Under the pieces are notes generated by a model. The model was not told the origin of the DNA. It did no database searches and worked only from the letters and a program-made list of their open reading frames with translations. Positions 3,837-61,174 of a DNA stretch of 64,000 nucleotides are shown one piece after another. The stretch comes from a virus (taxonomy: Duplodnaviria; Caudoviricetes): IMG/VR virus record IMGVR_UViG_3300043450_000376. One strand, given 5' to 3'. A program made the translations under genes and the position numbers. Every line of letters begins with the position of its first letter. Position 1 is the stretch's first letter.

Positions 3837-4259
3837 TTATGCTTCTGGAGTTTCCTCAGCAGCTGGTTCTTCAGCAGGTTCTTCACCTTCTTCAGGAGCT
3901 TCTTCTTCTTTCTCTTCTTCGCCTAATTGGAACATATCCTTAATTTTATTAAGAATCTCTTCTTTTTTAGCTTCCTTTTCTTCACCATCTTCCATTTCTT
4001 TCCACTCTTTGAATTCGCTAGAATAGAATGAATCGAAATCATCAGATGAAAGTTCATTGAACATTACATCAAGGTGTTCTTTTTTGAAAGCTTCTAAATC
4101 AGCACCTTCTTCAGGAGCTTCTTCAGTTGGCTCTTCTTCAACTGGAGCATCAGCTTCTGCCGCATCTTCTTCTTCAGTTAAACCGAATTTGTTTAAAAAC
4201 TCATTAGAGTTTACGTTCTCGTCAACCTTAGTAACGAAATCTTTGAAATTGTAAATCAT
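3837..4259 (-). CDS. highly acidic late protein with capsid-targeting-like leader
   Basis: likely start MIYNFKDFVTKVDE at 4259; E/A/P-rich; ATAAATA upstream at 4283-4289. Confidence 0.65.
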   Translation of the reverse strand: MIYNFKDFVTKVDENVNSNEFLNKFGLTEEEDAAEADAPVEEEPTEEAPEEGADLEAFKKEHLDVMFNELSSDDFDSFYSSEFKEWKEMEDGEEKEAKKEEILNKIKDMFQLGEEEKEEEAPEEGEEPAEEPAAEETPEA

Positions 4260-4324
4260 TTTAAATAGATCTATTTTACAGTTATTTATTTGCGCAAATA
4301 GGTATAATATTAAAAACAACAATT

Positions 4325-5125
4325 ATGCCAGAAGGACCTGAGTGCAGACGAGTATATGAAGGTTTAAGAAACCACTGCATTAATAAAAAATTAGTTAACG
4401 TAGAAATACTTGGAGGGCGCTTCCTAAAGACTCCCCCAAGCGGCCTGGAGACCCTGGGGCTGCCCCTGGAGGTAGTTGGAGGCGGAGTTAAGGGTAAATT
4501 CATCTGGCTGGAATTAGAAGAGGGCATGTCTATCTGGATTACTCTAGGTATGAGCGGCTTTTGGTCAATCTATGAAAAGCCGCATTCTCATATTAAATTA
4601 GTATTTGATGATGGCCTAGAGCTATTTTTTGTTGACCAGCGCCGATTTGGTACGCTTAAATTTGCAACTAAGGTTGAATTGGATGCAAAATTAAAAACCC
4701 TAGGGGTTGATGCACTCAATGACCAAAGTGCAACTATGTATGATACAATAAGATCGTTTGAACGGGTTCCAAACAAAACTATAGTTGAGGCACTAATGGA
4801 TCAGCGCCTTTTTGCAGGAATAGGAAACTATATTAAATGCGAAATGTTATACAGAACAAAGATCTCCCCACATAGATTAGTTAGAGACCTTACTGATAAT
4901 GACGTTTCTTTATTATGGGATTATGCTAAGCTAATAAGTAGGTCATCCTATAAGCAAGGTGGAGCAAGTATTAGAAACTATCAACAGGTGACAGGCGAAA
5001 CTGGCGACTTTGTGTTTGAATTTGAAGTATATGGCAAACGGGAAGATCCTCATGGAAATACAGTAATTAGAGAAAAAACAGCAGACGGCAGAACTACTCA
5101 TTGGGTACCAAGCCTACAACAATAA
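4325..5125 (+). CDS. mutM: formamidopyrimidine-DNA glycosylase / endonuclease VIII (Fpg/Nei family)
   Basis: N-terminal catalytic PEGPE, KGKFIW, LGMSG, DQRRFG, H2TH LMDQ..FAGIGNYIKCE. Confidence 0.92.
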   Translation: MPEGPECRRVYEGLRNHCINKKLVNVEILGGRFLKTPPSGLETLGLPLEVVGGGVKGKFIWLELEEGMSIWITLGMSGFWSIYEKPHSHIKLVFDDGLELFFVDQRRFGTLKFATKVELDAKLKTLGVDALNDQSATMYDTIRSFERVPNKTIVEALMDQRLFAGIGNYIKCEMLYRTKISPHRLVRDLTDNDVSLLWDYAKLISRSSYKQGGASIRNYQQVTGETGDFVFEFEVYGKREDPHGNTVIREKTADGRTTHWVPSLQQ

Positions 5126-5132
5126 ATATAAT

Positions 5133-5690
5133 ATGCAACACATTAAACCATACACACAATTTAATGAGAGTGTCCAGACAGCGCGAATATTTTGCGATAT
5201 GGATGGAGTACTTTCAGATTGGGATTCTCAGTTTGAAAAGGAGGCTGGAATGACAATAGCTGAATTTCAAAAGGAATATTCAAAAAATGCAAGTTGGAAA
5301 CTGGTTGGAAAAGCCGGCGAACCATTTTGGGCCGGCATGGAATGGATGACTGATGGTATTGACCTTTGGACATTTATTCGAAAGTTTAACCCAACTATCC
5401 TGTCTTCACCATCGCTTGATCCTAATTCAATTACAGGTAAAGCAAAATGGCTTAAGCGCAATCTAAACTGGGACTTTCCATATATTACAAAACTAGAGGA
5501 CTGGACCGGTAAAGAAAGGACTATTTTTTATAGTAACAAATTTGAATTTGCAACTGGCCCAAGCGATATCTTGATTGATGATACTCCAAAGAAATTAGAT
5601 GCATGGATTGCAGCTGGAGGAACTGGCATTTTACATACTAGTGCCAAGGAAACTATTGCAGAGCTAAAGAAATTAGGTTTCGATAAATAA
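5133..5690 (+). CDS. HAD-family 5'(3')-nucleotidase-like protein with capsid-targeting-like leader
   Basis: IFCDMDGVL (HAD motif I), ILSSP, LIDDT; leader MQHIKPYTQFNE|S. Confidence 0.8.
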   Translation: MQHIKPYTQFNESVQTARIFCDMDGVLSDWDSQFEKEAGMTIAEFQKEYSKNASWKLVGKAGEPFWAGMEWMTDGIDLWTFIRKFNPTILSSPSLDPNSITGKAKWLKRNLNWDFPYITKLEDWTGKERTIFYSNKFEFATGPSDILIDDTPKKLDAWIAAGGTGILHTSAKETIAELKKLGFDK

Positions 5691-5709
5691 CTAAAATTAC
5701 TTAATCGCA

Positions 5710-6786
5710 GTGAGAATCATTGAATCTTTTACAGGATTTTTAAAAATACAGGAAATGGGAGGTTGGGCAACAACAAAAACTCAGGGGACTAAAATTACAC
5801 CAACTGTTCTACAGGAGTCAGTTAAAGTATTGGAATTTATTTTTGGTAAATTTAATACTCATCTAGAAAAATTGGATATGGCTCCGCTAAAAGTACTTGG
5901 TCCAGGTGGATCTGGCGTTTATTTTAAACAGGATTTAGAAGAGAACCCAGACAAAGCATACGGCGACGTTGACATTTTAGTTGAATATCCATTAACTGAA
6001 CCTCAATCAAGACGAGTTGAAATTGATACCATGAAAGAATACAATCAGCTTATGCTGAAGTGGATTCAGGCAAATCCTCAACCTGAAATTGATGCAGAGG
6101 AGAGCGATGCAATTTCAGATGGCAGTCTAAAACTTGTAATTAACCTAAGCGCAGGCCCAGTTCAAGTTGATATTATTCCAACATTTACCTATTCAGCCGA
6201 ATGGGCAAAGGCTCGATATACTCCAATTAGAGGAATTAAAGGTTTTGTAGTAGGATTTTTATATCAATCTTTTGGCAATGCGCTAGACGTATCTGTTACT
6301 GATCGTGGAGTTGTTGCTAAAATTAAAAATGGAGAATTGGTTGGACCCAATATGCGTAAAGATGTTGAGGAAAAGATTATCACAAGAGATTTCTCTAAAT
6401 TTATTTTACATCTTGCTGAATTTGTTGATGAATTCTCTGGAACTAAACGCGAACTTGTAATTGATGATTACCTAAATGAACATCCTGGAATTGATGTAAC
6501 ACAACTTTCACTTGAACAAATTTGTAATGGAATCTTAGGATTTGCCAGAACTCTTGAAAAAACTGGCACGTATGATTTACCAAATTTTAAGTATAATAGT
6601 TCAAAGGAACTTTTAGAAGAGGTTGTTAAGATTTATGCACAAAAACTACATAAACACAGAACTTCATCTAAATACGATAAAGCCTTAACTGATTTAGCTA
6701 ACCAACAGAAAGATAAAGTAATGCAAGACGCTGAAACTGCATTCGAGTATGTTAGTAATAAACTATTAGATGGAACAAATATTTAG
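5710..6786 (+). CDS. Pol beta-superfamily nucleotidyltransferase with capsid-targeting-like leader
   Basis: GGSG..., YGDVDILV (DxD), VQVDII third acidic residue. Confidence 0.65.
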   Translation: MRIIESFTGFLKIQEMGGWATTKTQGTKITPTVLQESVKVLEFIFGKFNTHLEKLDMAPLKVLGPGGSGVYFKQDLEENPDKAYGDVDILVEYPLTEPQSRRVEIDTMKEYNQLMLKWIQANPQPEIDAEESDAISDGSLKLVINLSAGPVQVDIIPTFTYSAEWAKARYTPIRGIKGFVVGFLYQSFGNALDVSVTDRGVVAKIKNGELVGPNMRKDVEEKIITRDFSKFILHLAEFVDEFSGTKRELVIDDYLNEHPGIDVTQLSLEQICNGILGFARTLEKTGTYDLPNFKYNSSKELLEEVVKIYAQKLHKHRTSSKYDKALTDLANQQKDKVMQDAETAFEYVSNKLLDGTNI

Positions 6787-7399: not shown

Positions 7400-8124
7400 C
7401 GCTTAACAATAAAAGATATTACCAAGTAAATTCTGAAGAACATGGTCAATTGGGACCATTTCCAAGTGTAACGACTATTTTAGGATCAACTGCCGATACT
7501 ACAGGTATTGATAAATGGAAAGAACGGGTTGGCGAAGCTGAGGCAACTCGAGTAAGTCAAAATGCACTAGACCGTGGCAATATTATGCACAGACTTTGCG
7601 AAATTTATCTTAATCTTCCAGGTTCAATGACTACTCAAACTCGATTAGAGGAAACATTGGGACTTACCCGATTAGACGAGGAAATTGACAAACAGGATAA
7701 TCGTGCTAAGATTGTTGGCGGAATGATGTTCTATAATTACATTAGATCAGGTTCGTTTGACCGAATCAAGAAAACTGTAATGCAGGAACAGTTTCTGTGG
7801 ACTCATAGAAACGGCGGATATGCTGGAACTGTTGATAATGTTTCAGAATTAGTTGATGGTTCGTTTGCGGTAATTGATTTTAAAACTTCACGTAAACCAA
7901 AAAGGGAAGAGTGGATTGAAGATTATAAACTTCAAGTTGCAGCGTACTCAGTTGCGGTTTGGGATAGATATAAAATTAAGATTTCTCAGGCACAGATTTG
8001 GATCTCTAACGAGCAAACAATGGATCCTCAATATTTCGAAATGAATACTGAGGATCTTAAATTGTATTATAATAAATTCTTAGAAAGGCTTGATAAATTC
8101 TACGAAATGTTTCCTGTTAATTAA
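7369..8124 (+). CDS. PD-(D/E)XK exonuclease (T4-like phage type)
   Basis: FPSVTTIL, RGNIMH, YAGTVD, VIDFKTS, LQVAAY. Confidence 0.85.
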   Translation: MQTNDTIKRVTLNNKRYYQVNSEEHGQLGPFPSVTTILGSTADTTGIDKWKERVGEAEATRVSQNALDRGNIMHRLCEIYLNLPGSMTTQTRLEETLGLTRLDEEIDKQDNRAKIVGGMMFYNYIRSGSFDRIKKTVMQEQFLWTHRNGGYAGTVDNVSELVDGSFAVIDFKTSRKPKREEWIEDYKLQVAAYSVAVWDRYKIKISQAQIWISNEQTMDPQYFEMNTEDLKLYYNKFLERLDKFYEMFPVN

Positions 8125-9932
8125 TAGGCAACGATTTTACGTAGTGCAGCAACCCTAATTGCAATTTTTCTTGCACGACCGCTTGTATTATCAAAAACTC
8201 TTAAGTAAATATACTCTTCGTTTCTAGCACGGTTAACTACATAATAGTCAACTGGTGCAACAATTCCATAATATGTATTATGCGATGCAATATAGAGCAT
8301 TTCGTTTGGTGTAGTTGCACGCTTGCTATCAAATCTTTCTAAACGGAATCTTGTAAGACCTAATCCATCAATTGGTTCTTCGATTGAATATCCATTGATT
8401 GTATTTAAATAGTTGGTTCTAACTGGTGCAAATACTGGTGTAGATTTTCTTCTATTAAATCTATCCATTTGATCTGGTGAAAGTGCAATATCTGTCATTT
8501 GACCACGCTTAAGTTGCTTGGTACCGTATGTTCCACCTGGACTACGACCTTCTAGTGATGCTTTATATTGATCGTCTAAGAAAGTTTCTACGCTTGGCCC
8601 AAATCTTTCTTCATTTTGTGCACGCTGTATTTGACGTTCAGCTTCAATTCTTTCGCGCTCTTCTCTTTCAGTACGTTCCCTTTCTTCACGTTCAGCTCTT
8701 ATTCTAGCTGCAACTTCTGGATCAATTAGGTTTATAATAAAATCTTTAACTATTCGCCAATCAGTTGAACTATATCTGCTTCTAATCACAGTTGAATCAT
8801 CCTCGATTCCTGGGATTTGTGCAGGATCTACTTTAACAAATTGAGCTTTAATTGCTTCAGGATTATTGTTACAGGTTCTAGTATCAAAAGAAGAAAGTTG
8901 GCTTGCCTCGCTACCTCTTTCAACCCAATCAATATAATTTGGAACTGTAATTGCAATTACAGTATTATTAAGAACTCCGGCTAATACCCTAACTGGAATT
9001 GAGGTATCTCTGCCGTTTGCATATTGTCTAACATAAACAATATCTCCAATTTCTGGTTGAGCTTCCCATTGAATTCCTCGTTCAGTGCCATATGCTCTTG
9101 CGCGTTCAGCTGCTTCAAGATTTTCTCTTTCTCTACGTTCGCGTTCTAATCTTTCTCTTTCAGCTGGATCAAACCTTGCCATTACATCAGCTGGTAAAAT
9201 AGCTTTTAATTCATCATCAATTCCAAAATTTCTTGGAGTTACATTATTGTAGCTAACATTATTATCTAGGAAACTTGTTGCAAATCTAATTTTTTGATCA
9301 TTACTGATTGTTTTAATCATTGCAAATACACAGTCTGGTCCAAGAATTGCATGTACGTCATCCTCACTAAGGGATCCGTCTGCATTTAATTTTGGAGAAA
9401 TTAAAGATGCCCATGCATTATCTTTTTCTAGGGTTCCAGCCGTATTTGATTTTAACCATTTCTTTTGTTCAAGTAGGGCTCTATACAATTTATAACCAAG
9501 CCGAGCTCCTCTGAGCGAACTTGGAATTCCTCCACCTGGAAAGTGTGAACGACCGCTTGAGTCTACTTCCATATGAATACAGTCGCTTTGGTTATTAGCA
9601 TCAGCCCATTTACCAAAATTACTATTCATATAATTACTAATAAATGAATCGCCGCCTCCAGTAATTTTACCTTTAGCCTCAGTATAGATTGCCATAATTG
9701 GTGCAGGCAGCAGTGGATAGAATGAGCTTCCTCTGGTTTGCCAGGTAATTTCTCTCCAATTTAAATTAACCAAAGCTTCTTGAAAGCTTTTAGCCAATGG
9801 CGCAATTTCTCTAGCAAGGGCTTGACGGTCCTTTGCCTTCTTTAGATAATTATCTGGAAACTGTTCTGGCTGTAGAGCCATTTCTTCGACTTGATTAGAC
9901 TCTAGTACTAGGTCCAGGAATGATTTGTGCAT
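8121..9932 (-). CDS. large late protein with GNAT-like acetyltransferase segment and coiled coils
   Basis: LRGARLGYKLYRAL resembles GNAT motif A; ERER repeats; leader MHKSFLDLVLE|S. Confidence 0.45.
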   Translation of the reverse strand: MHKSFLDLVLESNQVEEMALQPEQFPDNYLKKAKDRQALAREIAPLAKSFQEALVNLNWREITWQTRGSSFYPLLPAPIMAIYTEAKGKITGGGDSFISNYMNSNFGKWADANNQSDCIHMEVDSSGRSHFPGGGIPSSLRGARLGYKLYRALLEQKKWLKSNTAGTLEKDNAWASLISPKLNADGSLSEDDVHAILGPDCVFAMIKTISNDQKIRFATSFLDNNVSYNNVTPRNFGIDDELKAILPADVMARFDPAERERLERERRERENLEAAERARAYGTERGIQWEAQPEIGDIVYVRQYANGRDTSIPVRVLAGVLNNTVIAITVPNYIDWVERGSEASQLSSFDTRTCNNNPEAIKAQFVKVDPAQIPGIEDDSTVIRSRYSSTDWRIVKDFIINLIDPEVAARIRAEREERERTEREERERIEAERQIQRAQNEERFGPSVETFLDDQYKASLEGRSPGGTYGTKQLKRGQMTDIALSPDQMDRFNRRKSTPVFAPVRTNYLNTINGYSIEEPIDGLGLTRFRLERFDSKRATTPNEMLYIASHNTYYGIVAPVDYYVVNRARNEEYIYLRVFDNTSGRARKIAIRVAALRKIVAY

Positions 9933-10012: not shown

Positions 10013-10750
10013 GTGATACACAAGAGCATTTTAATAAAGTCCGATGGATTCTATCAAGTTGATTGGGATCCAGAAACTGGCCAGCCCATTAAAGAAACCA
10101 GAATAACTGGAAGACTATCAAGCTATTTTGGTAATTTTGCTGAATTTGATAATGACGTTACAGTTAGCAATCTTCTTTTAATAATTGGAGACTTTGCTGA
10201 TGAAGTTAACTTAATTTTTAATGGTTATCTTAATGAAGTAGATTTTGACCTTTTTTTACAAGAGGCGTATATGGCCTCAATTAAACAACCGGCGCTCGAT
10301 TATATCGAATTGGCGTGGAAAGTCAGAATGACGGCATCTTCGGATATGACGATTTTAGATATTGTTCCAAATCTACTTGGAGTTAGCACAATAGTAGGCA
10401 GTGACTCGGATGTTATTACTGACCTAGATTTTATTATGTTAAGGGACCTATGTAAATTTGTAATATGCGAACAGACTGCTCTAGATATTCCAAACGATCA
10501 AACTTATGAAATTGCAGTTGAAGCTGAACGCAGATGGACCCTATTTGATATTATTTCTGGGTTTTTGCTTGAAATTGCAAGGTACGGTTCGCCAGAAGAA
10601 AAAGAATATATGATTGACGAACTAAATAAAGAAGCTAAGCTTTCATTTACTGAATTAATGGAATATGTTGATGAAATTGAAGAGCTTAGTAAAGAAATAG
10701 AAATCGGCTCACCAGATGATTTCTTAGATGATGAGGACGATGACAACTAG
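10013..10750 (+). CDS. hypothetical acidic protein
   Basis: 245-aa ORF with acidic tail. Confidence 0.65.
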   Translation: MIHKSILIKSDGFYQVDWDPETGQPIKETRITGRLSSYFGNFAEFDNDVTVSNLLLIIGDFADEVNLIFNGYLNEVDFDLFLQEAYMASIKQPALDYIELAWKVRMTASSDMTILDIVPNLLGVSTIVGSDSDVITDLDFIMLRDLCKFVICEQTALDIPNDQTYEIAVEAERRWTLFDIISGFLLEIARYGSPEEKEYMIDELNKEAKLSFTELMEYVDEIEELSKEIEIGSPDDFLDDEDDDN

Positions 10751-10937
10751 TTACCTAATTCGGGTTCCAAATGAGTCCCTGGCAGTCACCAGAGTAGCCC
10801 TGGAGCAGCTAGAGAGTCTAATTGAATACGAATACCCAGGTGCCATTTTTACAGATCTTTTGGTATTATTAGATATAGAAAGGCTAGACCAATTGGTCTC
10901 GGCCATTTCTGGTATCACTATATTACAAGGATTATGA
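10728..10937 (+). CDS. hypothetical protein
   Basis: overlaps both neighbours in the same direction. Confidence 0.4.
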   Translation: MMRTMTTSYLIRVPNESLAVTRVALEQLESLIEYEYPGAIFTDLLVLLDIERLDQLVSAISGITILQGL

Positions 10938-11911
10938 GAAAAAATACAATTAAAGTACACTACACACCTAAACAGGTCCTAGCAAAGGACTCCGGTGGTA
11001 ATTTTAGCAAGTCTCCGCTAAAACCAAAGAGGTTACTTGAAAATTTTGAGGCAGAGGGATTAGGCGAACATTTTGATATTGTTGAAGATTTTACACCATA
11101 TACAAATAAAGATTTTAAGATTGCCCACACTAAAAGATATGTAAATTCATTCTTTAGTGGACAAAAAGGCTGTGAATCAAATGGACTCGACTGGTCTACT
11201 CAATTTGCAGAGTCAGTTCGCTATACTAATGCATCACTGCACGCTGCAATACGGGGTTCTATTGTAGAACCAGATCAGGTTCATTTTAGTCCAACTAGCG
11301 GATTTCACCATGCTCGACCAGATGGAGGCAGCGGCTTCTGTACATTTAGTGGTCAAGTTATTGCATCAATTAAAATCCTACAAGAGTTTGGATTAAGCGG
11401 AGCTTATTTAGATCTAGACGGACACTTTGGAAATTCGGTTGAAGATGCTAGGGCATTTGTTAAAGATTTAGATAAAGCTGTTCCTTCTGAATTTAATATT
11501 AATCCAATTGGCAGAGGTACTTCATATATTAATAATCTTAAATGGAATCTACAAAAATTAGAAGAGGCTATCTTAACTGGCCAAATTGGATATGTTGTAT
11601 GGTGTCATGGTGCAGACTCGCATGAATGGGATGATTTAGGATTTCAGTGTTCAACTGAACAATGGTTAGAGTGCTCTACAATTTTTTGGAATTGGGTTAA
11701 ATCCATGGATAAAAAGTTAGGCAGGCCTCTTCCAGTAAGTTGCGCTCTATTTGGAGGATATCGTAAAGACGATTATCAAAGTGTCTTGAATTTGCATACA
11801 GCGGACTTTGTTGAGTGCATGAATATTTTGCTTAACCTTGAGGTTAAATATACTATAAAGGTACAGCCAAAATATTCATATTCGCATGGTAAAGAAGAAT
11901 ACGTCCGATGA
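10934..11911 (+). CDS. Zn-dependent histone-deacetylase-family amidohydrolase (HDAC/AcuC-like)
   Basis: SGFHHA, GFCTF, LDLDGHFGNS, GADSH..DDLG, FGGY. Confidence 0.88.
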   Translation: MRKNTIKVHYTPKQVLAKDSGGNFSKSPLKPKRLLENFEAEGLGEHFDIVEDFTPYTNKDFKIAHTKRYVNSFFSGQKGCESNGLDWSTQFAESVRYTNASLHAAIRGSIVEPDQVHFSPTSGFHHARPDGGSGFCTFSGQVIASIKILQEFGLSGAYLDLDGHFGNSVEDARAFVKDLDKAVPSEFNINPIGRGTSYINNLKWNLQKLEEAILTGQIGYVVWCHGADSHEWDDLGFQCSTEQWLECSTIFWNWVKSMDKKLGRPLPVSCALFGGYRKDDYQSVLNLHTADFVECMNILLNLEVKYTIKVQPKYSYSHGKEEYVR

Positions 11912-12074
11912 GGAAATGGAAAAGGTCTTTAAGGACCTTGATAAGTATGGATATAATTCCAAATACTGGTCAAGAATAGATGAAGTAATCCACTGGTTAG
12001 AATCCAGGGAAGAATATGAAAAGTGTGCGGATCTTTATGACTATAAAAAGTTTTACATAGACCCCATAAAATGA
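11886..12074 (+). CDS. small protein with UVR-like motif
   Basis: ESREEYEKCADL. Confidence 0.55.
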   Translation: MVKKNTSDEEMEKVFKDLDKYGYNSKYWSRIDEVIHWLESREEYEKCADLYDYKKFYIDPIK

Positions 12075-12331
12075 TAACACACAAACTCTGCCTAACCCTA
12101 ACAATTACACTGCATGGACTTTTACTTTTTTGTATGGCATGCTACCTACCTCATCTACTCATACATTCTCCAGCATGGGTTGCATTTCCAGTAATCTTTA
12201 TGTTAATAAATTTTATTTGGACTGGAGGCGCTCAACCACTAACTGATTTAGAAAATTCATTTAGGGCAAAATTAGGCTGGCCCAGAATACACTGCTTTAT
12301 TGGACACTACCTTACAAACATGTTAAAATAA
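12071..12331 (+). CDS. small membrane protein
   Basis: two hydrophobic helices; PLTDLEN motif. Confidence 0.55.
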   Translation: MITHKLCLTLTITLHGLLLFCMACYLPHLLIHSPAWVAFPVIFMLINFIWTGGAQPLTDLENSFRAKLGWPRIHCFIGHYLTNMLK

Positions 12332-12694: not shown

Positions 12695-13546
12695 TTATTT
12701 ATCTGATAAGTAATCTTCAAGGAACTCAGTAAGCTTCTCGGAATCAGATAATTCTGTGTAATCCATTTTGTATTGTTGGTTAAATCTTTCGGCTAATAGA
12801 TTAGAAGCCTTTGTTTTATTGTGCTGAATTAATAGATTAATACCAAGCCAATCTGCCTCCTGCTCCTGTCTTGTTGAATAGTAAGGTTCGCCTTGATGAT
12901 TTGCAATTGAGTGACCAATTTCATGAGCCTCAACCGCAAGCATATGATCCTTTGTAAAATATGATTCGCTTACCTCTGATCCATCAAAATAGATAGTTTG
13001 ATTTTCTAAATTGGCAAATGCAATTCCAAGTTTTTCAAAGTATGGTTTAGTAGTATTGTATAAACTATCATTTGGATAGGTAATAACTAGAGTCCAGCTT
13101 GGATCCAGTTGAGCTGACATTGTAATAGGTTCTTCAATACTTTCACTAAGGCTTAGGTCTCTAACTTCATCTTCAGTATCTTCGTTTCCCTTAAATGGAT
13201 CTTTAAAATTAACTTGGCCCTTGACTTTGCTTGCATTACGACCCATCATGTCTCTCCATAATTCTCTAACATCAGGCTGGCCCATTTGATCGGCTAACGC
13301 GGCTGAATAAAATCCTTTGTCTTCGATTTGCGCAATTTCAAACCATTTCTCAACTCCAATTCTTTTTCCGTGTTTATCACGAATTGAGGCTAGGTGCTTA
13401 AACCTTAAAAACAGGTCTGTATTATAAGTATCACCTATGTATTTACGTTGAGGATTCAGCTCAGACAGTTTTTTTGTATATGGCTTTGCTGGTGCGATTG
13501 CTTCGGTTATCCAGTCAGTAAATTGTTTAACTTGCATGTTTTGCAT
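12695..13546 (-). CDS. HExxH zinc-metallopeptidase-like late protein
   Basis: AHEIGH plus downstream EQEAD; leader MQVKQFTDWITE|A. Confidence 0.6.
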   Translation of the reverse strand: MQNMQVKQFTDWITEAIAPAKPYTKKLSELNPQRKYIGDTYNTDLFLRFKHLASIRDKHGKRIGVEKWFEIAQIEDKGFYSAALADQMGQPDVRELWRDMMGRNASKVKGQVNFKDPFKGNEDTEDEVRDLSLSESIEEPITMSAQLDPSWTLVITYPNDSLYNTTKPYFEKLGIAFANLENQTIYFDGSEVSESYFTKDHMLAVEAHEIGHSIANHQGEPYYSTRQEQEADWLGINLLIQHNKTKASNLLAERFNQQYKMDYTELSDSEKLTEFLEDYLSDK

Positions 13547-14290: not shown

Positions 14291-14773
14291 ATGTTGAGAC
14301 ATTTTTTAATTATAATTATCCTGTTTTTTATAACTAATTGGGCAAATGCTCAAATAGTTGTCGATAAAGGCGGAGACAGTTGGTCGACTAAAGTTGATTC
14401 AGCTCTAGTTTTAATTAAGAAAACTTCGCCGAAGCATTGGCAAATGGTTCAAGAATCGTGCAATCATATTTCAATGTGGAATGGAAAAACTTCAACTACA
14501 CAACCTGGCAAAGGAAGTGAACTGGGTACAATCGTAATATCCAGGGATGATTTTAAATTAAATTCAATAAACAATATAGCTGCAGTAATTGTTCACGAGA
14601 GCAAACACCTATGGATCTCTATTAATACTATTAATTATAGTAGCGGTAGTGCAGAAGAGGCAGACTGCTATTTATGGGAACTTGAATTTTTACAAATGAT
14701 TCCAAACGTTGAACCATGGTTAGTCCAACATGTCTTTAACCAATTTATTGGTAACACTGAACCTCGTAAATAA
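14291..14773 (+). CDS. secreted HExxH metallopeptidase-like protein
   Basis: signal peptide ...WANA|Q; VHESKH; EEADC. Confidence 0.55.
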   Translation: MLRHFLIIIILFFITNWANAQIVVDKGGDSWSTKVDSALVLIKKTSPKHWQMVQESCNHISMWNGKTSTTQPGKGSELGTIVISRDDFKLNSINNIAAVIVHESKHLWISINTINYSSGSAEEADCYLWELEFLQMIPNVEPWLVQHVFNQFIGNTEPRK

Positions 14774-46269: not shown

Positions 46270-46614
46270 ATGTATATGAAACACGTATCAAACTTTGGAG
46301 GCTGGAAAGCCGAAAATAATATTAATGAAAGCTTGATTCTTACTATTCAAGCTGGTATTGTACTTGGTCTACTTGGTATAAAGGGCCTTATGATGATTGT
46401 ACGCAAGGTTGCGCAAAAGGTTGGTGAAGGGGTTGAACTGCCTAAAGCTGAACTAAAATCCCTAGTTGATGACATTATCTCCGATATTAAAAAGGCAGAT
46501 AAGGGTAACTCATCATTTGCTGAATTAGAACGCGAACTAAAAAAGAGGATTGATGGTGGTGAAATTACCAAAGCCAAAGATATTATTCCTGTAATTAAAG
46601 AATTTACTAAATGA
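46270..46614 (+). CDS. late protein with leader and TM helix
   Basis: MKHVSNFGGWKAENNINE|S; ATAAATA at 46263. Confidence 0.6.
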   Translation: MYMKHVSNFGGWKAENNINESLILTIQAGIVLGLLGIKGLMMIVRKVAQKVGEGVELPKAELKSLVDDIISDIKKADKGNSSFAELERELKKRIDGGEITKAKDIIPVIKEFTK

Positions 46615-47444: not shown

Positions 47445-47507
47445 ACTTAATCCAAATTCATGGTATCTAGTACAAGATAAATAATTACAAATAAACATTA
47501 TCTTAAA

Positions 47508-48798: not shown

Positions 48799-48829
48799 AA
48801 AAAGCCGGGAAAATCTCTCGGCTTTTTTT
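48799..48829 (+). terminator. intrinsic terminator
   Basis: AAAAGCCGGGA..TCTCGGCTTTT + T run. Confidence 0.7.
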
Positions 48830-49364: not shown

Positions 49365-50714
49365 ATGTCAAACATTTTAAGATACCAAACTTGGTTAAAT
49401 GAAAACCGTATCTTTGAGGCAGACTCTAGTCTCTTCATTGATTGGAAAGGAAAATTAAGCGGAGCATTTCCTAAATTAGGATTAGCTGGAGAAGGCAAAC
49501 GAATAATTGGAATTGGTGCAAAGTCCGGAAAAGAAGACGCAATGGGAATAACATTTGGCTCAGCTGCAAATCGCGGAACTAAGTGGTCAGTAATTACACC
49601 GCCTAAATCTACTCCGCCAGTTGCAACTACTCCACAATTAACACCGCCTACTATTACCCCATCTGTTGATTTTAAAGGAACAGATTTTCCTTATCCAGAT
49701 AATATTATTACCCCAAACTGGACCATTGCACAAGGTGCAAAGACTCTATTTGATGGTTTTATTATAAATCTGGTTGACTATTTTAAATTAGATCCAACTC
49801 AAGCTAAAAACAATTTTAAATCAATTGCAATTGAAGGAGCAGCCGACGTTGCAACTGCAACGCTAGATGTTCCAGCTGGATATACGAAGCTAGATCATAA
49901 TTATGGTGGAGCTAAACCCAGTAACGAATTTCTTGCAGAGAATCGTGCACTTAAAATGAAAGAAGCAATTGTTAAAGCCCTAACTGCAAATGGCGGACTT
50001 ACTCCAGAATTAGTTACTTTTATATCAGGTAAAATTACAACCACTTTTAAAACAGGTTTACCGAGAGGCGGTCGTTATGTTAAAATCACAACTGCAGCTA
50101 CTCCATATGATGTAAAAACAGCAGGCACAGCAATTCCAGCCACAACTACACCAGGAACAGAAACTCCAGGCCAAGTTGGACCTAGCGGAGAAATTTCTAA
50201 AACCTATTCGGTTCTAACTGATAATTTATTAGAATTCTTTTTTGGAGATGCCAGTACGCATAAAATTGAATCTAGTGCAATTACTCCATTTAGACCAGAT
50301 AAAAATGGTAAATCTGATTTTGTAAAAATTGAAATTTCAGCTTTACAAAATTGGGCTAAAGCATATTTAGGTGGTGAGCTATTAAGTTCAGCTGAAGTTG
50401 CTAATCTTACTGCAACTATTGAAATGGGTGAAGCTGAGACTCGTCAAAATGCATACGGTAAAGAAAGAACCTATTCAATTTCATTTAATGTTCCATCTGG
50501 AAAAGTATTTGCTCCATCTGATGAAGGTAATACTGTTACATGCTCAACTCAAAATAGTAGATATCTAAACCAATTTGGTTATGGAACAGATCAGCAAGGA
50601 ATAAAAACAGGTATGCCATTTGTAATATTCTATACTGCAATTGGAGACGGTCAGTGGGGAATATTAGAAATGAATTCAATTGCAATTGCAAAAGAAACTT
50701 TAATAATGGGATAA
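49365..50714 (+). CDS. late protein with OmpA-C-like domain and leader
   Basis: MSNILRYQTWLNE|N; IAIEGAAD..NEFLAENRALKMKEAI..RYVKI. Confidence 0.6.
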   Translation: MSNILRYQTWLNENRIFEADSSLFIDWKGKLSGAFPKLGLAGEGKRIIGIGAKSGKEDAMGITFGSAANRGTKWSVITPPKSTPPVATTPQLTPPTITPSVDFKGTDFPYPDNIITPNWTIAQGAKTLFDGFIINLVDYFKLDPTQAKNNFKSIAIEGAADVATATLDVPAGYTKLDHNYGGAKPSNEFLAENRALKMKEAIVKALTANGGLTPELVTFISGKITTTFKTGLPRGGRYVKITTAATPYDVKTAGTAIPATTTPGTETPGQVGPSGEISKTYSVLTDNLLEFFFGDASTHKIESSAITPFRPDKNGKSDFVKIEISALQNWAKAYLGGELLSSAEVANLTATIEMGEAETRQNAYGKERTYSISFNVPSGKVFAPSDEGNTVTCSTQNSRYLNQFGYGTDQQGIKTGMPFVIFYTAIGDGQWGILEMNSIAIAKETLIMG

Positions 50715-50721: not shown

Positions 50722-51486
50722 ATGCGATACATCAAACTATTTGAAGACCTAGAACCATTTTATCAGCCGAGCCTTAACCCAAGGGTTTGGGGAGTTACTG
50801 ATGTAAATACTGCACCTAAAATCCATCCAGGTTTAAGAAACAGGCTACTTGTTATTGCGCAAGATTTCTATGAAGCCCTTAAAGTTGAGATTCCAATTGA
50901 GGATATCCACTTAACTGGCTCGCTTGCTAATTATAACTGGACTAAGTATTCAGATTTTGATGTGCATGTTCTATTTGATTTTACTAAGATTAATGAAGAT
51001 ACTGCACTAGTTAAAAAAGCACTCGACGGTCAACGATTTATGTGGAATCAGCGTCATCCAGTCCAAATCTTAAGTCATGATGTTGAACTATATGCCCAAG
51101 ATATTAGTGAACCACACATCGCAAGCGGTCTCTATTCTCTCCTAAAAGACGAGTGGATTACAATTCCTCGCTTTACTCCACCTTCAATTGATCCTAAAGA
51201 CGTTAGTCGTAGAGTTGAAGCACTAGAAACTGAAATTGAAATGCTGGCTAAAGAGATTGTTACGGGCGATTTCGGGTTAATTCAGGAGCCTCTAATCTCA
51301 AGAGTTGATTGGCTTAAAGAGAAAATCATGAAAGCTCGCAAGGATGGTCTAAGTGCACGAGGAGAGTTCTCAGTTGAGAACCTAACGTTTAAAGCGCTTA
51401 GAAATTCAGGCCATATTGAAAAACTAATTGATCTAGGCAAAGAAGCCTATCGACGTCGTCACTCAGACGGAAACCCTATTGTATAG
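50722..51486 (+). CDS. Pol beta-superfamily nucleotidyltransferase with leader
   Basis: MRYIKLFE|D; IHLTGSLANYNW..SDFDVH (GS, DxD), DVELY. Confidence 0.75.
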   Translation: MRYIKLFEDLEPFYQPSLNPRVWGVTDVNTAPKIHPGLRNRLLVIAQDFYEALKVEIPIEDIHLTGSLANYNWTKYSDFDVHVLFDFTKINEDTALVKKALDGQRFMWNQRHPVQILSHDVELYAQDISEPHIASGLYSLLKDEWITIPRFTPPSIDPKDVSRRVEALETEIEMLAKEIVTGDFGLIQEPLISRVDWLKEKIMKARKDGLSARGEFSVENLTFKALRNSGHIEKLIDLGKEAYRRRHSDGNPIV

Positions 51487-56423: not shown

Positions 56424-58259
56424 ATGGCATCAACAAAAGAAATTAGTAAGAAATACCAGCTGCTTGATGAGATCGAGCACGTCCTAAAAAGACCTGGCAT
56501 GTATATTGGTTCAACTAAACCTCATACAAGTCAGGAGTGGATCCTTAAAGATGGTATGTATGAGAAAGAGGAATTGACTTACAATCCCGGCTTTCTAAAG
56601 TTATTTGATGAGATTATCTCAAACTCAGTCGACGAGCATAAACGCTCAGGTAAAATTAACCAGATCAAAGTTGTTATTAAAGACAACCTTATTTCAGTTT
56701 GGGATAATGGCGGAATTCCAGTAGTTCAGCATCCAGAACATAAAGTCTGGATTCCCGAATTAATCTTTTCTAACCTTAGAGCTGGCTCTAATTTTAATGA
56801 TGATGAAGGTAGAATTGTAGCTGGAACAAATGGAGTTGGTGCATCACTAGTTAATATCTTTTCTAATAAGTTTAAGATTGAAACAGCTGATGGTAAAAAG
56901 AGACTAGTTCAGCTTTTTACCAAAAACATGTCAGTTAAGGGTGTTGCAAAGATTTCTGCATCAACTCAAGGTTTTACTGAAATTTCATATGAAACAGATT
57001 TAAGCAGATTTGAAATGAAATCTCTTGATGAAGCTCATATTAAAATGATGCGTAAACGTGTTATTGATATTGCAGCAGCAAATCCGGGTCTTAAGCTAGA
57101 ATTTAATGGCGAGAAATTTAGATTTAAAAATTTCAAAGAATACGTTGAGCTCTATGTTCAAGCTCCAGTTTGGGAAAAGAGCGAGCATTGGGAATTTGCA
57201 GTTGGCCATTCAAAAGATGGCTATCAATCTATTTCATTTGTTAATTCAATTGAAACTAAAGATGGCGGTACCCATGAAAACTATATCTTAAATCAGGTAA
57301 TTGAAGACCTAAGAGTCTTAATTAAAAAGAAACATAAGGTTGAAGTTAAACCTTCGGAAATTCGTAATCATGTTTTCTTATTCATAAACTGTACAGTAAT
57401 TAATCCGGCGTTTTCTTCTCAAACCAAAGAAAAACTAATTACTGAACCTAAAGAATTTGGAACAGCCCATACTGTTTCAGACAAATTTGCTAAAGCAGTT
57501 TTTGCATCAGAAATAATTGAATCATTATTAGATTGGATTCAACAAAAGAAACAGGCTGAAGAGAGAGCTGAGTTACGTAAACTTAATAAATCTCTTGCAA
57601 CAACTAAAGTTCTTAAGTTAATTGATGCTAAAGGCAAGGACAGAAGCAAGTGTTCGCTTGGAATATTTGAAGGTATGTCTGCCCTATCAGCAGTTCGTAA
57701 GTTTAGAGATCCTCAGGTATTTGGAGCATTTCCACTTAAAGGTAAATTTCTTAATGTAAGTGAGATGAAGAATACTGAAGTTATTAAGAACGAAGAAGTA
57801 GTTCAGCTGATGGCATCGTTAGGAATTAAATTAGGAGAAGATCCCAAGGAAATGCGTTATAATAAAATCCTAATCTATACTGATGCTGATCCAGATGGAG
57901 ACTCGATTGCAGGTTTACTAATTAACTTTTTTAATAGGTATTGGCCAGAATTAGTAACAGAAGGCAAGGTCTTTAAAGTAATGACGCCGCTTGTTGTTGC
58001 AAAGAAAGGTAAAGAAATCATGCCATTTTATACAGCCGATTCTTATTTAAAATGGGAAGCTGAAACTAAAATGACAGGCTGGACAGTTGAATACAAAAAA
58101 GGTCTTGCAGCACTTGAAGATGCAGAGTATCGAGAGATTATTCATAACCCAAATTTAGTACAATTAACTAACGATAAACAGGCAGCGAAATCACTAGACG
58201 ACTGGTTCGGAAATGATTCAGCTCCTCGAAAAGCACGTCTTTTACAATTTTCAATATGA
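56424..58259 (+). CDS. type II DNA topoisomerase, ATPase/TOPRIM subunit (GyrB/ParE; T4 gp39+gp60-like)
   Basis: EHVLKRPGMYIGS, DEIISNSVDE, GTNGVGA, FEGMSA, PLKGK, TDADPDG. Confidence 0.95.
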   Translation: MASTKEISKKYQLLDEIEHVLKRPGMYIGSTKPHTSQEWILKDGMYEKEELTYNPGFLKLFDEIISNSVDEHKRSGKINQIKVVIKDNLISVWDNGGIPVVQHPEHKVWIPELIFSNLRAGSNFNDDEGRIVAGTNGVGASLVNIFSNKFKIETADGKKRLVQLFTKNMSVKGVAKISASTQGFTEISYETDLSRFEMKSLDEAHIKMMRKRVIDIAAANPGLKLEFNGEKFRFKNFKEYVELYVQAPVWEKSEHWEFAVGHSKDGYQSISFVNSIETKDGGTHENYILNQVIEDLRVLIKKKHKVEVKPSEIRNHVFLFINCTVINPAFSSQTKEKLITEPKEFGTAHTVSDKFAKAVFASEIIESLLDWIQQKKQAEERAELRKLNKSLATTKVLKLIDAKGKDRSKCSLGIFEGMSALSAVRKFRDPQVFGAFPLKGKFLNVSEMKNTEVIKNEEVVQLMASLGIKLGEDPKEMRYNKILIYTDADPDGDSIAGLLINFFNRYWPELVTEGKVFKVMTPLVVAKKGKEIMPFYTADSYLKWEAETKMTGWTVEYKKGLAALEDAEYREIIHNPNLVQLTNDKQAAKSLDDWFGNDSAPRKARLLQFSI

Positions 58260-59611
58260 TGATTAAAGCAGAATTAAAATCAGTATCTCAATTTCTAGAT
58301 CAGGACTATGCAGCCTATGGTATGTACACTCTTGAAAACAGAGCAATTCCCTCAGTTATAGATGGATTTAAGCCAACTCAGCGTAAAATTATTTTTATTG
58401 CAGATAAAGTTTGGAAAGGTTCTAATGATAAACCACTAAAGATATTTCAGCTAGGCGGCCGAATTGCAGCAGATGCACACTATCATCATGGAGATGGATC
58501 TCTTAATGGAGCTATTATTGGAATGGCTCAATCATTTAAAAACTCCCTTCCGTTATTGGATGAGGTTGGCCAATTTGGATCAATGCGATCTCCCGAAGCA
58601 GGTGCTGCTCGTTATATTTCAACCAAACTTACTCCAAATTTTAGATTACTCTATAAAGATTTTGAACTATTAACTTCGCAAATCGAAGAAGGTAATGAAA
58701 TCGAACCTAAATATTTCTTACCAATTATTCCAACTGTCCTCCTAAATGGAAGTTCAGGTATTGCAGTAGGTTTTGCTACAAATATTTTGAACAGAAATCC
58801 TGCTCAATTAATAGAAGCTTGCACTAAAGTATTAGATGGTAAAAAGATTGGAGAATTACTTCCATGGTTTAAGGATTTCAATGGGCCAATCTCTAGAATT
58901 GGAGATAACCAATATCAATTTAAAGGAGTTGCTCGAGTAGTTAATACAACAACGGTTGAAATTACCGAGTTACCTCCATCAATGACATTCCAAAAATATG
59001 AGAACCATTTAAATAATTTACAAGAGCGTGGAGTTATTTTCTCATATGAAGATAACTGTTCAAACGGAATTTCATATACCCTTAAATTTCAACGAGCTAG
59101 CCTTGCTGACTTGATTGCAAAAGATAAATTAGAGACAACTCTTAAATTAGTAGAAACTGATAGTGAGAATTTAACATGTCTAGATGAAAGAGGTAAACTT
59201 AAAATATTTTCAAGTCTACCAGAATTAGTTGATTACTTTGTTAAATTTCGTTTAGCGTATTATGATAAACGCAAGGCTTACTTAATTGATACATTAGAAA
59301 AAGATTTAGTGTATCTTTCAAATAGAGCCAGATTTATTAAGATGATTATTGATGGTAAACTTAAATTAGGTAATCGCCCAAAACAAGAAATCGTTTTAGA
59401 ATTAGATGAGCTTAAGTTTGACCGTATCAATTCAGGCTTTGACTATTTGCTAAGCATGCAAATTCAAACTTTAACTAAGGAGAAATACGAGCAGTTAGTC
59501 AATGAAGTTAAAGAAAAATCTGCAGAATTGGTAACTGTAAAAAAGACTGCACCAATTGATATGTATAGAACCGATCTTGCAGAATTAAAGAAAAATCTTA
59601 AGACTAAATAA
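58256..59611 (+). CDS. type II DNA topoisomerase, breakage-reunion subunit (GyrA/ParC; T4 gp52-like)
   Basis: RAIPSVIDGFKPTQRK, YHHGD.S, GQFGS, AARYI catalytic Tyr, NGSSGIAVGFAT. Confidence 0.95.
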   Translation: MMIKAELKSVSQFLDQDYAAYGMYTLENRAIPSVIDGFKPTQRKIIFIADKVWKGSNDKPLKIFQLGGRIAADAHYHHGDGSLNGAIIGMAQSFKNSLPLLDEVGQFGSMRSPEAGAARYISTKLTPNFRLLYKDFELLTSQIEEGNEIEPKYFLPIIPTVLLNGSSGIAVGFATNILNRNPAQLIEACTKVLDGKKIGELLPWFKDFNGPISRIGDNQYQFKGVARVVNTTTVEITELPPSMTFQKYENHLNNLQERGVIFSYEDNCSNGISYTLKFQRASLADLIAKDKLETTLKLVETDSENLTCLDERGKLKIFSSLPELVDYFVKFRLAYYDKRKAYLIDTLEKDLVYLSNRARFIKMIIDGKLKLGNRPKQEIVLELDELKFDRINSGFDYLLSMQIQTLTKEKYEQLVNEVKEKSAELVTVKKTAPIDMYRTDLAELKKNLKTK

Positions 59612-60018
59612 TGAAGTTTTTAAATCAACACCCTATCAAGAAATCTGATCTTGGATTTCATGGTAATTTATTTGGAGGTAAACTCCTAGCCTGGATTGAT
59701 GCAGCGGCAGCCGGTTATGCAATGGAATATGCACATAATCGTAGAATGGTTACAGTTAAAATTGATGAATGTATATTTAAAAAGCCAGCCAAAGAGGGCA
59801 GTCTACTTAAAATTTATGGTTCTATAACAAAGGTTGGTAATACCAGTATTACTCTGTACATAGAGGCAAGATCCTTTAATGTCTATACGCACGACGAAGA
59901 TATTGTCCTGTCCACTCATATTACATTTGTTAGAATAGATGAAGACGGTAGTCCTATTCCAATTTCAGATAAGGTTCGAAACGGCTTTCATTATGAAGTA
60001 GCATCGAAAGATAAATAA
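59611..60018 (+). CDS. acyl-CoA thioesterase (HotDog fold)
   Basis: GNLFGGKLLAWIDAAA, VTV, FKKP, VGNTS. Confidence 0.85.
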   Translation: MKFLNQHPIKKSDLGFHGNLFGGKLLAWIDAAAAGYAMEYAHNRRMVTVKIDECIFKKPAKEGSLLKIYGSITKVGNTSITLYIEARSFNVYTHDEDIVLSTHITFVRIDEDGSPIPISDKVRNGFHYEVASKDK

Positions 60019-60040
60019 TACTGAAAAAAGAACTATTAAT

Positions 60041-60913
60041 ATGTCATTAGTAACTAGCTTCGATAAATTTAATGTAAACGAAGAAGAAATTGAAACTCCT
60101 ACTCCAGCCCCGGCTGAAGATCCAATGGCTGAACCTGCTGCTTCTGAAGAAGTTAAAGTAGAAGAGCCTGCTGCTGAAGAAGCTCCAACCGAAGAAGTTA
60201 AAGCGGACGAACCTCAAGCTGAAGAACACGAATACTATTTTACATGGTATGGCTGGGTTCCTAGTTATGGAGATTTTGACCAAGACTGGATGTCAGTTAA
60301 AGCAAAATCGGATAGCGAAGCAATTGAAAAATTATCTGAATACAAACCACTTCAATATTCAAAAGGTGGAGTTGGTCTTGATACACTAGACGGAGAAAAA
60401 CCTAAAGGTGCATCTGTTGCTGGATGGGACGAACAAGAAGATGGTTCTAAAATTGCAAAATCTTATGAAGTAGATTTTAAAAACAAGAAATTTGTTCTTA
60501 ATGTTACTACATATCCAAAGGATCACTTTGCTAATCCTAAAGAAAACCCTAAAAAGAATGAAAAACAGGACGTTGAACCATTCTTTAGTGGAGAAACTAA
60601 AACTAATGAAGGAATGGATTCTATGATGGAAGTTTCTCTTGAAGAGAAGTACGATACATTTGTAGAGTCAATTCGCAAAAGCGGTAAAGGCGCAAAGCTT
60701 ACCTTAACACCTAACGATATTATTGTTGAATTTGGATTTGACTATCCAGATGAATTAGCTCAGCTTGCATTTGAAACTGCAGATGAATTAGGAATTTCTA
60801 GTAGAGAACTTTCAGTTTGTGCAGAATCTAGCGGACACAAAGCTATTAAGATCAATAGAGTTAACGGTGGCCCTAAGAACTGGAACATGCTAAATAGATA
60901 CGGGCGTCGTTAA
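60041..60913 (+). CDS. acidic late protein with leader
   Basis: MSLVTSFDKFNVNE|E; E/P/A-rich; GATAAATAA at 60010. Confidence 0.65.
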   Translation: MSLVTSFDKFNVNEEEIETPTPAPAEDPMAEPAASEEVKVEEPAAEEAPTEEVKADEPQAEEHEYYFTWYGWVPSYGDFDQDWMSVKAKSDSEAIEKLSEYKPLQYSKGGVGLDTLDGEKPKGASVAGWDEQEDGSKIAKSYEVDFKNKKFVLNVTTYPKDHFANPKENPKKNEKQDVEPFFSGETKTNEGMDSMMEVSLEEKYDTFVESIRKSGKGAKLTLTPNDIIVEFGFDYPDELAQLAFETADELGISSRELSVCAESSGHKAIKINRVNGGPKNWNMLNRYGRR

Positions 60914-60916
60914 TCA

Positions 60917-61174
60917 GTGCCAAAGGTATTATCATATAACGAGTGGGCTGATCTTAAGCAAGCCAATCATGTAAACCACGATGGCTATCTAGACTCATCT
61001 CCAAATAATACAAACCCCTATAATATTATTCCTTCTGCTGACATCACAATGGATGGCGTTAGCAGAAGGCTTAAACTTACCCCCGAAAAAGGCGAATCTA
61101 TTATCGCTGAACCAAACTCAGGTTCATATAATTTCGGAGACTCTAGTTGGGTACTAGAAATTCCTCAAGATTAA
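60917..61174 (+). CDS. small protein (weak leader-like start)
   Basis: MPKVLSYNEW; NIIPS..ITM.GV. Confidence 0.55.
   Translation: MPKVLSYNEWADLKQANHVNHDGYLDSSPNNTNPYNIIPSADITMDGVSRRLKLTPEKGESIIAEPNSGSYNFGDSSWVLEIPQD

Follow-up and report, generated by a model that had tools for sequence, protein, structure and literature searches.

A T4-like N-terminal leader shared by late proteins of an uncultivated jumbo phage and its probable role as an address for head cargo

Why should many apparently unrelated late proteins of one phage begin with nearly the same short peptide? The question is raised by a stretch of 64,000 nucleotides (nt) from the IMG/VR virus record IMGVR_UViG_3300043450_000376 (the window), which belongs to an uncultivated jumbo phage with a genome of about 250 kb and head genes that are distantly T4-like. 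A peptide of this kind, the capsid targeting sequence (CTS) of the T4 internal proteins, was reportedly described by Mullaney and Black in 1996. In the T4 internal proteins IPII and IPIII it reads MKTYQEFIAE (PMC8442874) and is removed by the prohead protease gp21 (PMC8442874, PMC9958956, PMC3012670). The leader described here is probably the version of the T4 CTS used by this lineage, a targeting and cleavage propeptide that would have been extended to enzymes, and it probably marks an unusually large protein cargo packed with the DNA. We infer physical packaging, cleavage and injection by analogy with T4.

The strong form of the leader follows the pattern M-x(0-3)-[IV]-K-x-[FY]-x-x-[FW]-[ILV]-x-E; in the canonical copies the terminal Glu is invariant, Ile, Leu or Val stands two residues ahead of it and Asn is favoured directly before it. 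In a six-frame scan of open reading frames (ORFs) of at least 60 amino acids (aa) with a ten-column position-specific scoring matrix (PSSM), 12 ORFs of the window reach at least 10 bits after the start codon, against none in the reversed window and a mean of 0.07 when residues 2-18 are shuffled. A window-independent matrix seeded from two related genomes only (G001 and G003, introduced below) places 11 window N-termini at or above the same value. Among the 113 called ORFs the core [FYW]xx[FWY][ILVM]xE is observed nine times inside the first 10-17 residues, compared with 0.31 expected from its internal rate. The original prediction, made by a model from the letters alone, had quoted seven N-termini, starting at 15496, 19871, 26717 and 26288 on the minus strand and at 44526, 47508 and 49365 on the plus strand, all of which were verified. 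It had also proposed a scan with a hidden Markov model (HMM) of the leader; this gives 10 N-terminal matches of at least 8 bits, and the sole 'internal' match is a mis-called start, as the true start of 26292-26717 is the ATG at 26717 and not the GTG further upstream. Its total of about 23 leaders is reached with 12 strong ones and 11 weak ones.

The leader is kept in orthologues that are 30-40% identical. Synonymous codons at its conserved positions track genome-wide usage, and different codons serve to maintain the aromatic and aliphatic classes; codon choice is thus free where the residues are conserved, and selection therefore acts on the peptide. Among the relatives, 11 leader proteins were counted in G005 and 16-19 strong ones in the whole genome of G003. 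A second motif, R-L-x-x-L-G-L, occurs in nine copies in the window (14861-45375) against about 0.3 expected. Eight of the nine lie in six leader proteins and the ninth in 44914-45375, the next gene after the leader gene 44526. In many cases the motif follows the leader and an acidic linker directly; it is sometimes doubled, is present in leader proteins of G003 and is absent from the scaffold.

The T4 CTS scores 18.4 bits on the PSSM built from this clade only, a score that 3e-5 of internal windows attain, and when the whole T4 genome is scanned in six frames four loci are retrieved, with IPII and IPIII ranked as the first two. The best window in T4 gp23 covers residues 56-65 and ends ...FGSFLTE/A (a slash marks the cut) at Glu65, the known cut; maturation of gp23 takes off 65 residues (PMC9958956), and gp21 favours I/L-x-E (PMC12991175). 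By sequence, therefore, the leader is a CTS of the T4 type and a cut site of the gp21 type, as the original prediction had proposed from the likeness to IPII and IPIII. Both peptides have about 10 N-terminal residues, a Lys at position 2 and an aromatic-x-x-aromatic-[IL]-x-E ending. The leader of the clade differs in that it is usually 1-3 residues longer, carries a conserved [IV]-K ahead of its first aromatic residue and favours Asn or Thr before the Glu. T4 has two identical copies of its CTS, whereas 12-23 bearers are found here within 64 kb.

The genes that carry the leader share a promoter-like element. The consensus of T4 late promoters is TATAAATA, and in the window 22 of the 28 ATAAATA copies are followed on their own strand by a start codon at a distance of 7-35 nt, typically 25-32 nt. 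Units that begin with this box contain 23 of 23 leader genes compared with 13 of 85 other genes (Fisher p ~1e-14), which upholds the earlier observation that nearly all leaders follow it. The early block at 27.7-42.6 kb holds 33 genes, all of them without a leader. In G001 and G003 the box also stands ahead of the protease-scaffold gene and of many large structural genes. Since ATAAATA heads both the leader genes and the structural genes of the relatives, it appears to act like the T4 late promoter, and the leader genes are predicted to be expressed late, together with the head genes.

Head modules were found in relatives of the window. A Peptidase_S77 protease (PF03420) is present in G001, G002, G003 and G005 and in pT24 (NC_049383), a cultured Tenacibaculum phage. 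The gene in the relatives has 660-700 codons, with the protease domain (phrog_207 E 7.6e-36; about residues 1-300 in G002) followed by about 400 more residues, and the capsid gene comes next. The C-terminal half is scaffold-like and consists of 8-11 tandem 14-residue repeats of the form x-x-x-I-x-Y-[ST]-E-Y-[VLI]-A-E-x-[LV], seen at the DNA level as a 42-nt tandem array. Every repeat holds the seven-residue core of the leaders and of T4 Y-Q-E-F-I-A-E ([FY]xx[FYH][ILV]xE), and of the 19-26 core matches found internally per genome, 6-8 lie in these repeats. pT24 has its own shorter leader dialect, M-x(1-3)-I-[ST]-x-Y-[IL]-x-E, on 11 proteins against about 0.7 expected (for example 173362-173994, 179862-180485, 43075-43623 and 92740-92994). 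Its S77 protease-scaffold gene shows no clear tandem repeat in the scaffold, and the argument from co-variation of leader and scaffold is for that reason limited to G001, G002, G003 and G005.

The major capsid proteins (MCPs) of G001-G003 contain a conserved NAG[AS][IL]NE/[AS] near residue 53, directly ahead of a variable linker and the conserved body, and this [IL]-N-E ending is the commonest ending of the leaders. Directly downstream of the MCP gene the relatives encode a protein of 117-119 aa with a leader, for example MANPVLSYTEFLTE/K, whose mature part is repetitive and very basic (isoelectric point, pI, ~10.2) and which is likened to a T4 internal protein on these grounds. A complex prediction for leader residues 1-40 of 14861-15496 with the protease domain of G002 gave a score of 0.00, which speaks neither for nor against binding.

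Several of the proteins behind the leader are recognisable enzymes (Table 1), much as the original prediction had listed them. The HAD nucleotidase and the amidase are confirmed by profile matches, the latter with a leader-like start that lacks the Glu. Of the two nucleotidyltransferases, one is identified by PF01909 and the other, of the Pol-beta type, by its fold and its GSG...DxD signature, which is invariant; Foldseek relates it to Pol lambda/beta, CD-NTase and OAS with weak E-values of about 1e-3. The proposed metallopeptidase (12695-13546) is partly backed by a weak HExxH match and by phrog_87 metallo-protease at E 2.4e-4, while the Pfam M48/M78 matches are under the cut-off. The proposed GNAT-like protein was dropped, as none was found in the Pfam (E up to 1) or PHROGs searches. 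The remaining leader proteins are orphans in Pfam and PHROGs, and for 49365-50714 an atlas look-up gave no usable lead.

In two of these enzymes the leader appears as an add-on lying outside the fold. The AlphaFold2 (AF2) models of the nucleotidase and the Pol-beta-type nucleotidyltransferase have a predicted local distance difference test score (pLDDT) below 50 in the leader and above 90 in the domains; for the nucleotidase, modelled from a 63-sequence alignment, the mean is 92.6 and residues 1-14 fall below 50. In metagenomic homologues of the nucleotidase (P0008-P0120) the N-terminus is extended by 15-27 residues. The extensions fall into several dialects, each specific to a lineage and with an [IL]-x-E end, such as MYKLTDLYKQLKEEE... 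and MKFKEYVLKE...; a few members have no extension and begin at the DxDGV motif. The phage 5'(3')-deoxyribonucleotidase family may be widely conserved head cargo. Homologues of the Pol-beta-type enzyme read MKNIKSFTDFLQINE/MGGW and always have the form ...[IL]-x-E/MGGWAT, with the mature end fixed at E/MGGW. Many of their database entries begin at the MGGW Met; the upstream DNA still has a leader with a TTG start and an ATAAATA box.

These features are consistent with a mechanism in which the leader, 10-15 residues with the core [FY]-x-x-[FW]-[ILV]-x-E, would be one scaffold-repeat unit that has been copied onto other proteins. The leader proteins would be made late, along with the head proteins, and would co-assemble through the leader with the scaffolding core in the prohead. 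The S77 (gp21-type) protease would then cut behind the leader Glu, as it would at the scaffold repeats and at the [IL]-N-E site of the capsid protein. Once mature, the proteins would remain beside the DNA in the head and probably pass with it into the next host; the predicted cargo comprises two Pol-beta-type nucleotidyltransferases, a 5'(3')-deoxyribonucleotidase, a peptidoglycan amidase, a metallopeptidase-like protein and many orphans. The anatomy of the sequences carries this scheme as far as a shared type of site; incorporation, cleavage and ejection would proceed as in T4. A bolder version, which we regard as possible but somewhat doubtful, is scaffold mimicry. The decapeptide would give any protein both entry to the core and release from it, the head would be pre-loaded with at least 20 mostly acidic and in many cases enzymatic proteins acting in the next host before phage gene expression, for example against nucleotide-based immune signalling, and the leader dialects would make the packaged proteome readable.

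Several observations weigh against the CTS interpretation. Eleven of the 23 leaders are degenerate, five of them with partial support: for 5133, 5710 and 8121 the G003 orthologues have a better or canonical leader, 15498 reaches 11.5 bits, and 24309 has G-D in place of the x-E ending. In the other six, only half of the motif ([IL]K-x-[FY]-xx-[FW]) or a gapped form is seen: 3837, 16789, 25063, 46270/46611, 50722 and 60041/60917. The terminal Glu is absent in 3837-4259 (which ends T-K) and in 24309-24944 (which ends G-D). The predicted mature cargo is 8-67 kDa and mostly acidic (pI mostly 4-6), unlike the small basic internal proteins of T4, and an amidase or a nucleotidase could function without being packaged. 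The gp21-like protease that the original prediction called for was found as the S77 protease of G001, G002, G003 and G005; like the scaffold and the MCP, it was seen in relatives only, the window's own genome having been covered within the 64 kb. The other two loci retrieved from T4, each at 15-17 bits, belong to no known head protein. One is gp61.1 (NC_000866 18966-19130), a hypothetical protein of 54 aa that adjoins the primase gene and begins MKTFKEFIKE; the other is an internal start in uvsW (NC_000866 114198-114440), the former UvsW.1 part, which begins MLLEFKQFLYE. Because these two loci match, the motif alone is no proof of head localisation.

Other explanations account for parts of the same pattern. 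The leader proteins may enter the prohead only as components of assembly or of the core and be degraded, expelled or retained there with no role in the next cell. The leader core is the scaffold repeat unit, T4 scaffold proteins are degraded and lost, several leader proteins contain further internal [ILV]xE sites and core matches, and the majority share with scaffold parts an acidic character that sets them apart from the basic T4 internal proteins. This is plausible for some of the leader proteins and rather unlikely as a general account: the nucleotidase, the nucleotidyltransferases and the amidase have well-folded domains behind the leader, for which a mere filler would have no need, and T4 proteins with a CTS are cut once and retained (PMC8442874). 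The leader could also be a docking helix through which late proteins bind some other partner (for instance a chaperone, the membrane or a host factor), with a convergent likeness to the T4 CTS. It is a short peptide with a hydrophobic face (the helical moment is significant in some copies only), gp61.1 shows that such a start can occur in T4 outside the known head proteins, and the RLxxLGL motif hints at further interactions. We consider this quite improbable, as it leaves unexplained why the core recurs in the scaffold repeats, why it resembles the capsid-protein site and why it ends invariantly in the motif cut by S77 proteases. The leader is no export signal, since other late proteins of the window have ordinary signal peptides.

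Two further readings carry hardly any weight. A recognition sequence for a modifying enzyme, like that of ribosomally synthesised and post-translationally modified peptides (for example with a radical-SAM enzyme), would fit the known pattern of a single enzyme acting on many tagged substrates, but the tag closes with a protease site and its sequence fits the T4 CTS. The radical-SAM version was rejected: PF04055 Radical_SAM is absent in the five relatives G001-G005 (G003 being 93% complete), while 14 of 14 control genomes match. It is equally far-fetched that the common start reflects a signal in late-gene mRNA or translation initiation, chance or hidden paralogy. Genes without a visible Shine-Dalgarno sequence and with A/T-rich starts would suit an RNA-level signal, but this was rejected by the codon analysis described above, in which codons vary freely at conserved positions and residue classes are kept by different codons. 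Chance is opposed by the 12 leaders observed against the shuffled and reversed controls. Paralogy was ruled out by an all-against-all BLASTP of the leader proteins, matchless apart from one 29-residue stretch.

The T4-type CTS interpretation can be set beside several known systems. Besides the CTS itself, T4 shares the late-promoter-like ATAAATA box and, in the relatives, the S77 protease and the gp23-type capsid protein; its internal proteins are small and basic, whereas the predicted cargo here is mostly large, acidic and partly enzymatic. T4 Alt, an ADP-ribosyltransferase that is packaged in the head and injected, offers a parallel for an enzyme as gp21-trimmed head cargo. Like the T4 core proteins gp22, gp67 and gp68, the scaffold would be cut at many [ILV]xE sites. 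T4 gp22 has 20 such sites and begins MLKEQLIAE/A; unlike gp22, the scaffold of the relatives is fused to the protease and has regular 14-residue repeats with a CTS-like core. The variable internal-protein loci of T-even phages encode diverse anti-restriction proteins with only the CTS in common (PMC3012670). The leader genes resemble them in combining one conserved address with exchangeable, fast-evolving cargo, the sets differing among the window, G002 and G003; they differ in being distributed among several late operons, in including recognisable enzymes and in belonging to a phage of a probable Bacteroidota host, whereas the T-even genes occupy one locus in phages of enterobacteria. The jumbo phages phiKZ and SPN3US likewise have many head-loaded proteins processed by a gp21-related protease; their cut motif, a small residue-x-Glu, is not known to follow a single shared short N-terminal address, in contrast to the one T4-like decapeptide reused here. 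PMC5694885, PMC7411985 and PMC10052503 describe ejection and inner-body proteins of these phages that are matured by a T4-like prohead protease, with eight head proteins cleaved in SPN3US.

Table 1. Leader genes and ATAAATA boxes of the window, with the protease-scaffold genes of its relatives. A slash marks the predicted cut; distances are from box to start codon.
Position	Strand	Leader or element	Protein	Evidence and context	Relatives
12695-13546	-	canonical, MQNMQVKQFTDWITE/A	283 aa	PSSM 25.6 bits	G003 orthologue: MKLLQFSTWLTE
14861-15496	-	canonical, MKIKRFNQFINE/S	orphan, 211 aa	PSSM 28.8, HMM 22.3 bits; one RLxxLGL	G003 orthologue: MKTFSQFINE
18398-19027	-	canonical, MSYFKKFGAFINE/D	209 aa	PSSM 21.1 bits; ATAAATA 28 nt upstream; RLxxLGL directly behind leader	
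19314-19871	-	canonical, MKALKFKQFLNE/G	185 aa	PSSM 22.6 bits; ATAAATA 12 nt upstream; two RLxxLGL	G003 orthologue: MSRIKPFLAHINE
22358-23902	-	canonical, MEIKKYHDWLFE/K	orphan, 514 aa	PSSM 21.0 bits; ATAAATA 30 nt upstream	
25638-26288	-	canonical, MKHIRLYKDFITE/E	216 aa	PSSM 19.0 bits; operon behind 26292-26717; RLxxLG[LM] at residue 71	
26292-26717	-	canonical, MNRIKRFSEYLVE/A	141 aa	PSSM 17.0 bits at internal ATG; ATAAATA 32 nt upstream of 26717	
44526-44948	+	canonical, MKAKSFSQFITE/D	140 aa	PSSM 24.4 bits; ATAAATA 30 nt upstream; RLxxLGL after leader	G002 homologue: MSSIKTFTAWINE, N-terminal part longer
47508-48779	+	canonical, MSTIKSFESFVNE/G	orphan, 423 aa	PSSM 22.1 bits; ATAAATA 31 nt upstream	G002 orthologue: 72% identity, identical leader
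49365-50714	+	canonical, MSNILRYQTWLNE/N	orphan, 449 aa	PSSM 22.9 bits; ATAAATA 31 nt upstream	G002 orthologue: MANILRYQNWLNE
5133-5690	+	MQHIKPYTQFNE/S	HAD 5'(3')-deoxyribonucleotidase	phrog_2643 E 1.2e-27, match from residue 15	G003 orthologue: canonical, ...LKNFSQFITE
5710-6786	+	MRIIESFTGFLKIQE/M, GTG start	Pol-beta-type nucleotidyltransferase	AF2 pLDDT 87.8; residues 1-18 below 50	
24309-24944	+	leader-like, MPQHIKLFESWLGD, no terminal Glu	Amidase_2 peptidoglycan amidase	PF01510 E 1.9e-11, residues 66-175; phrog_1794 amidase; ATAAATA 29 nt upstream	
50722-51486	+	weak, MRYIKLFEDLE/P	NTP_transf_2 nucleotidyltransferase	PF01909 22.9 bits (cut-off 21); phrog_36119 E 3.8e-33	G001 copy: own ATAAATA 29 nt upstream
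15498-16787	-	shortened, MKTIKQFLQE/A	429 aa	PSSM 11.5 bits; in operon, leader genes on both sides	
8121-9932	-	degenerate, MHKSFLDLVLE/S	603 aa	ATAAATA 30 nt upstream	G003 orthologue: MINSFIQMVNE/S
3837-4259	-	weak, MIYNFKDFVTK (Lys end)	140 aa	PSSM 11.1 bits; ATAAATA 30 nt upstream; start corrected to ATG at 4259	
16789-18420	-	weak, MRIIESFNSW...LLTE/N	543 aa	late operon; N-terminus like that of 5710-6786	
25063-25635	-	weak, MKYLKPYRLFE/S	190 aa	two or three xLxxLGL motifs; in ATAAATA-headed unit	
46270-46614	+	gapped, leader-like, MYMKHVSNFGGW...NINE/S	114 aa	PSSM 5.5-9.1 bits; ATAAATA 7 nt upstream	G002 orthologue: MKHVNNFNNW...LNE/S
46611-47444	+	weak, MKHLMLYEEW...	277 aa	late operon	N-terminus kept in G001, G002 orthologues
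60041-60913	+	weak, MSLVTSFDKFNVNE/E	290 aa	ATAAATA 30 nt upstream	N-terminus kept in G001, G002 orthologues
60917-61174	+	weak, leader-like, MPKVLSYNEW..., GTG start	85 aa	HMM 3.8 bits; operon behind 60041-60913	
47477-47483	+	ATAAATA box (example)		here GATAAATAA	
5122, 5683, 24280, 44496, 46263, 49334, 60011	+	further ATAAATA boxes (starts)			
4289, 9962, 13581, 19055, 19883, 23932, 26749	-	further ATAAATA boxes			
99219-101315		protease-scaffold gene			G001
10106-12139		protease-scaffold gene			G002 (L058)
161268-163250		protease-scaffold gene			G003
45606-47645		protease-scaffold gene			G005

The window has 36% G+C and about 110 ORFs, and encodes T4-type topoisomerase II subunits at 56424-59611. 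The only matches of the topoisomerase DNA are to uncultured huge phages (LR7565xx) and, weakly, to jumbo phages of Tenacibaculum and Chryseobacterium. Close relatives were found in IMG/VR, namely G001 and G002 (topoisomerase 96% identical), G003 and G005. Sequences of this kind turn up repeatedly in metagenomes from lakes. G002 is the nearest, with DNA 76-88% identical across 38-64 kb of the window (26 kb in common); G003 (252.6 kb; 93% complete by CheckV) is syntenic with the window at about 70%. The capsid protein of the relatives is closest to those of LR756500, the Lak megaphages and pT24, followed by gp23 of T4-like cyanophages and Aeromonas phages (~25%). Shine-Dalgarno sequences are not visible ahead of the ORFs of the window, and signal peptides of a Bacteroidota type occur on several late proteins; on these features the host is likely to be a Bacteroidota bacterium.

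Classical signal peptides, in which a hydrophobic stretch leads to A-Q or S-Q, are found in 14291-14773, 21886-22287, 45385-46260, 48828-49337 and 63226-63960, and the genes at 45385 and 48828 sit among leader genes inside late operons. Two islands, 24001-28000 and 40001-46000, are richer in G+C (0.42-0.47 against ~0.36 elsewhere); they contain the leader genes 24309-26717 and 44526-45375 as well as two genes preceded by ATAAATA and without a leader (42735-43367 and 43844-44458), and may represent recently gained cargo that was given the local leader. Two other genes lack a leader. A DNA glycosylase at 4325-5125 lies directly upstream of the nucleotidase, and its homologue in L079 matches Pfam Fapy_DNA_glyco/H2TH; the L089 copy of 10934-11911 matches Pfam Hist_deacetyl.

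The CTS principle (1996), the variable CTS-bearing internal proteins of T-even phages (PMC3012670) and the many processed head proteins of phages of the phiKZ/SPN3US type are already known. As the principle is old, what is new is confined to the scale, the type of cargo and the link to the scaffold, and is not a new kind of system. Among the papers searched that name the CTS, no description was found of CTS-like leaders in Bacteroidota jumbo phages or of a scaffold made of CTS-like repeats, and a literature search for virion proteomics of the cultured relatives PTm1, pT24 and MA9V found none; pT24 might be used as a model for experiments.

Provided that the leaders function as they do in T4, the proteins packaged by an uncultivated lineage of jumbo phages could be listed from sequence, and, if scaffold mimicry is true, leader dialects such as those seen in pT24 and in the nucleotidase family would reveal the packaged proteomes of uncultivated T4-like phages, jumbo phages and megaphages in the same way. 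The likeness between leader and scaffold repeat would offer a concrete mechanism for CTS recognition, which is still unsettled in T4. In engineered Bacteroidota phages the tag could direct the loading of proteins, a use to which the T4 CTS is put in T4. Packaged proteins would be the first phage factors that the host meets, and those predicted here would be prime candidates for anti-defence functions.

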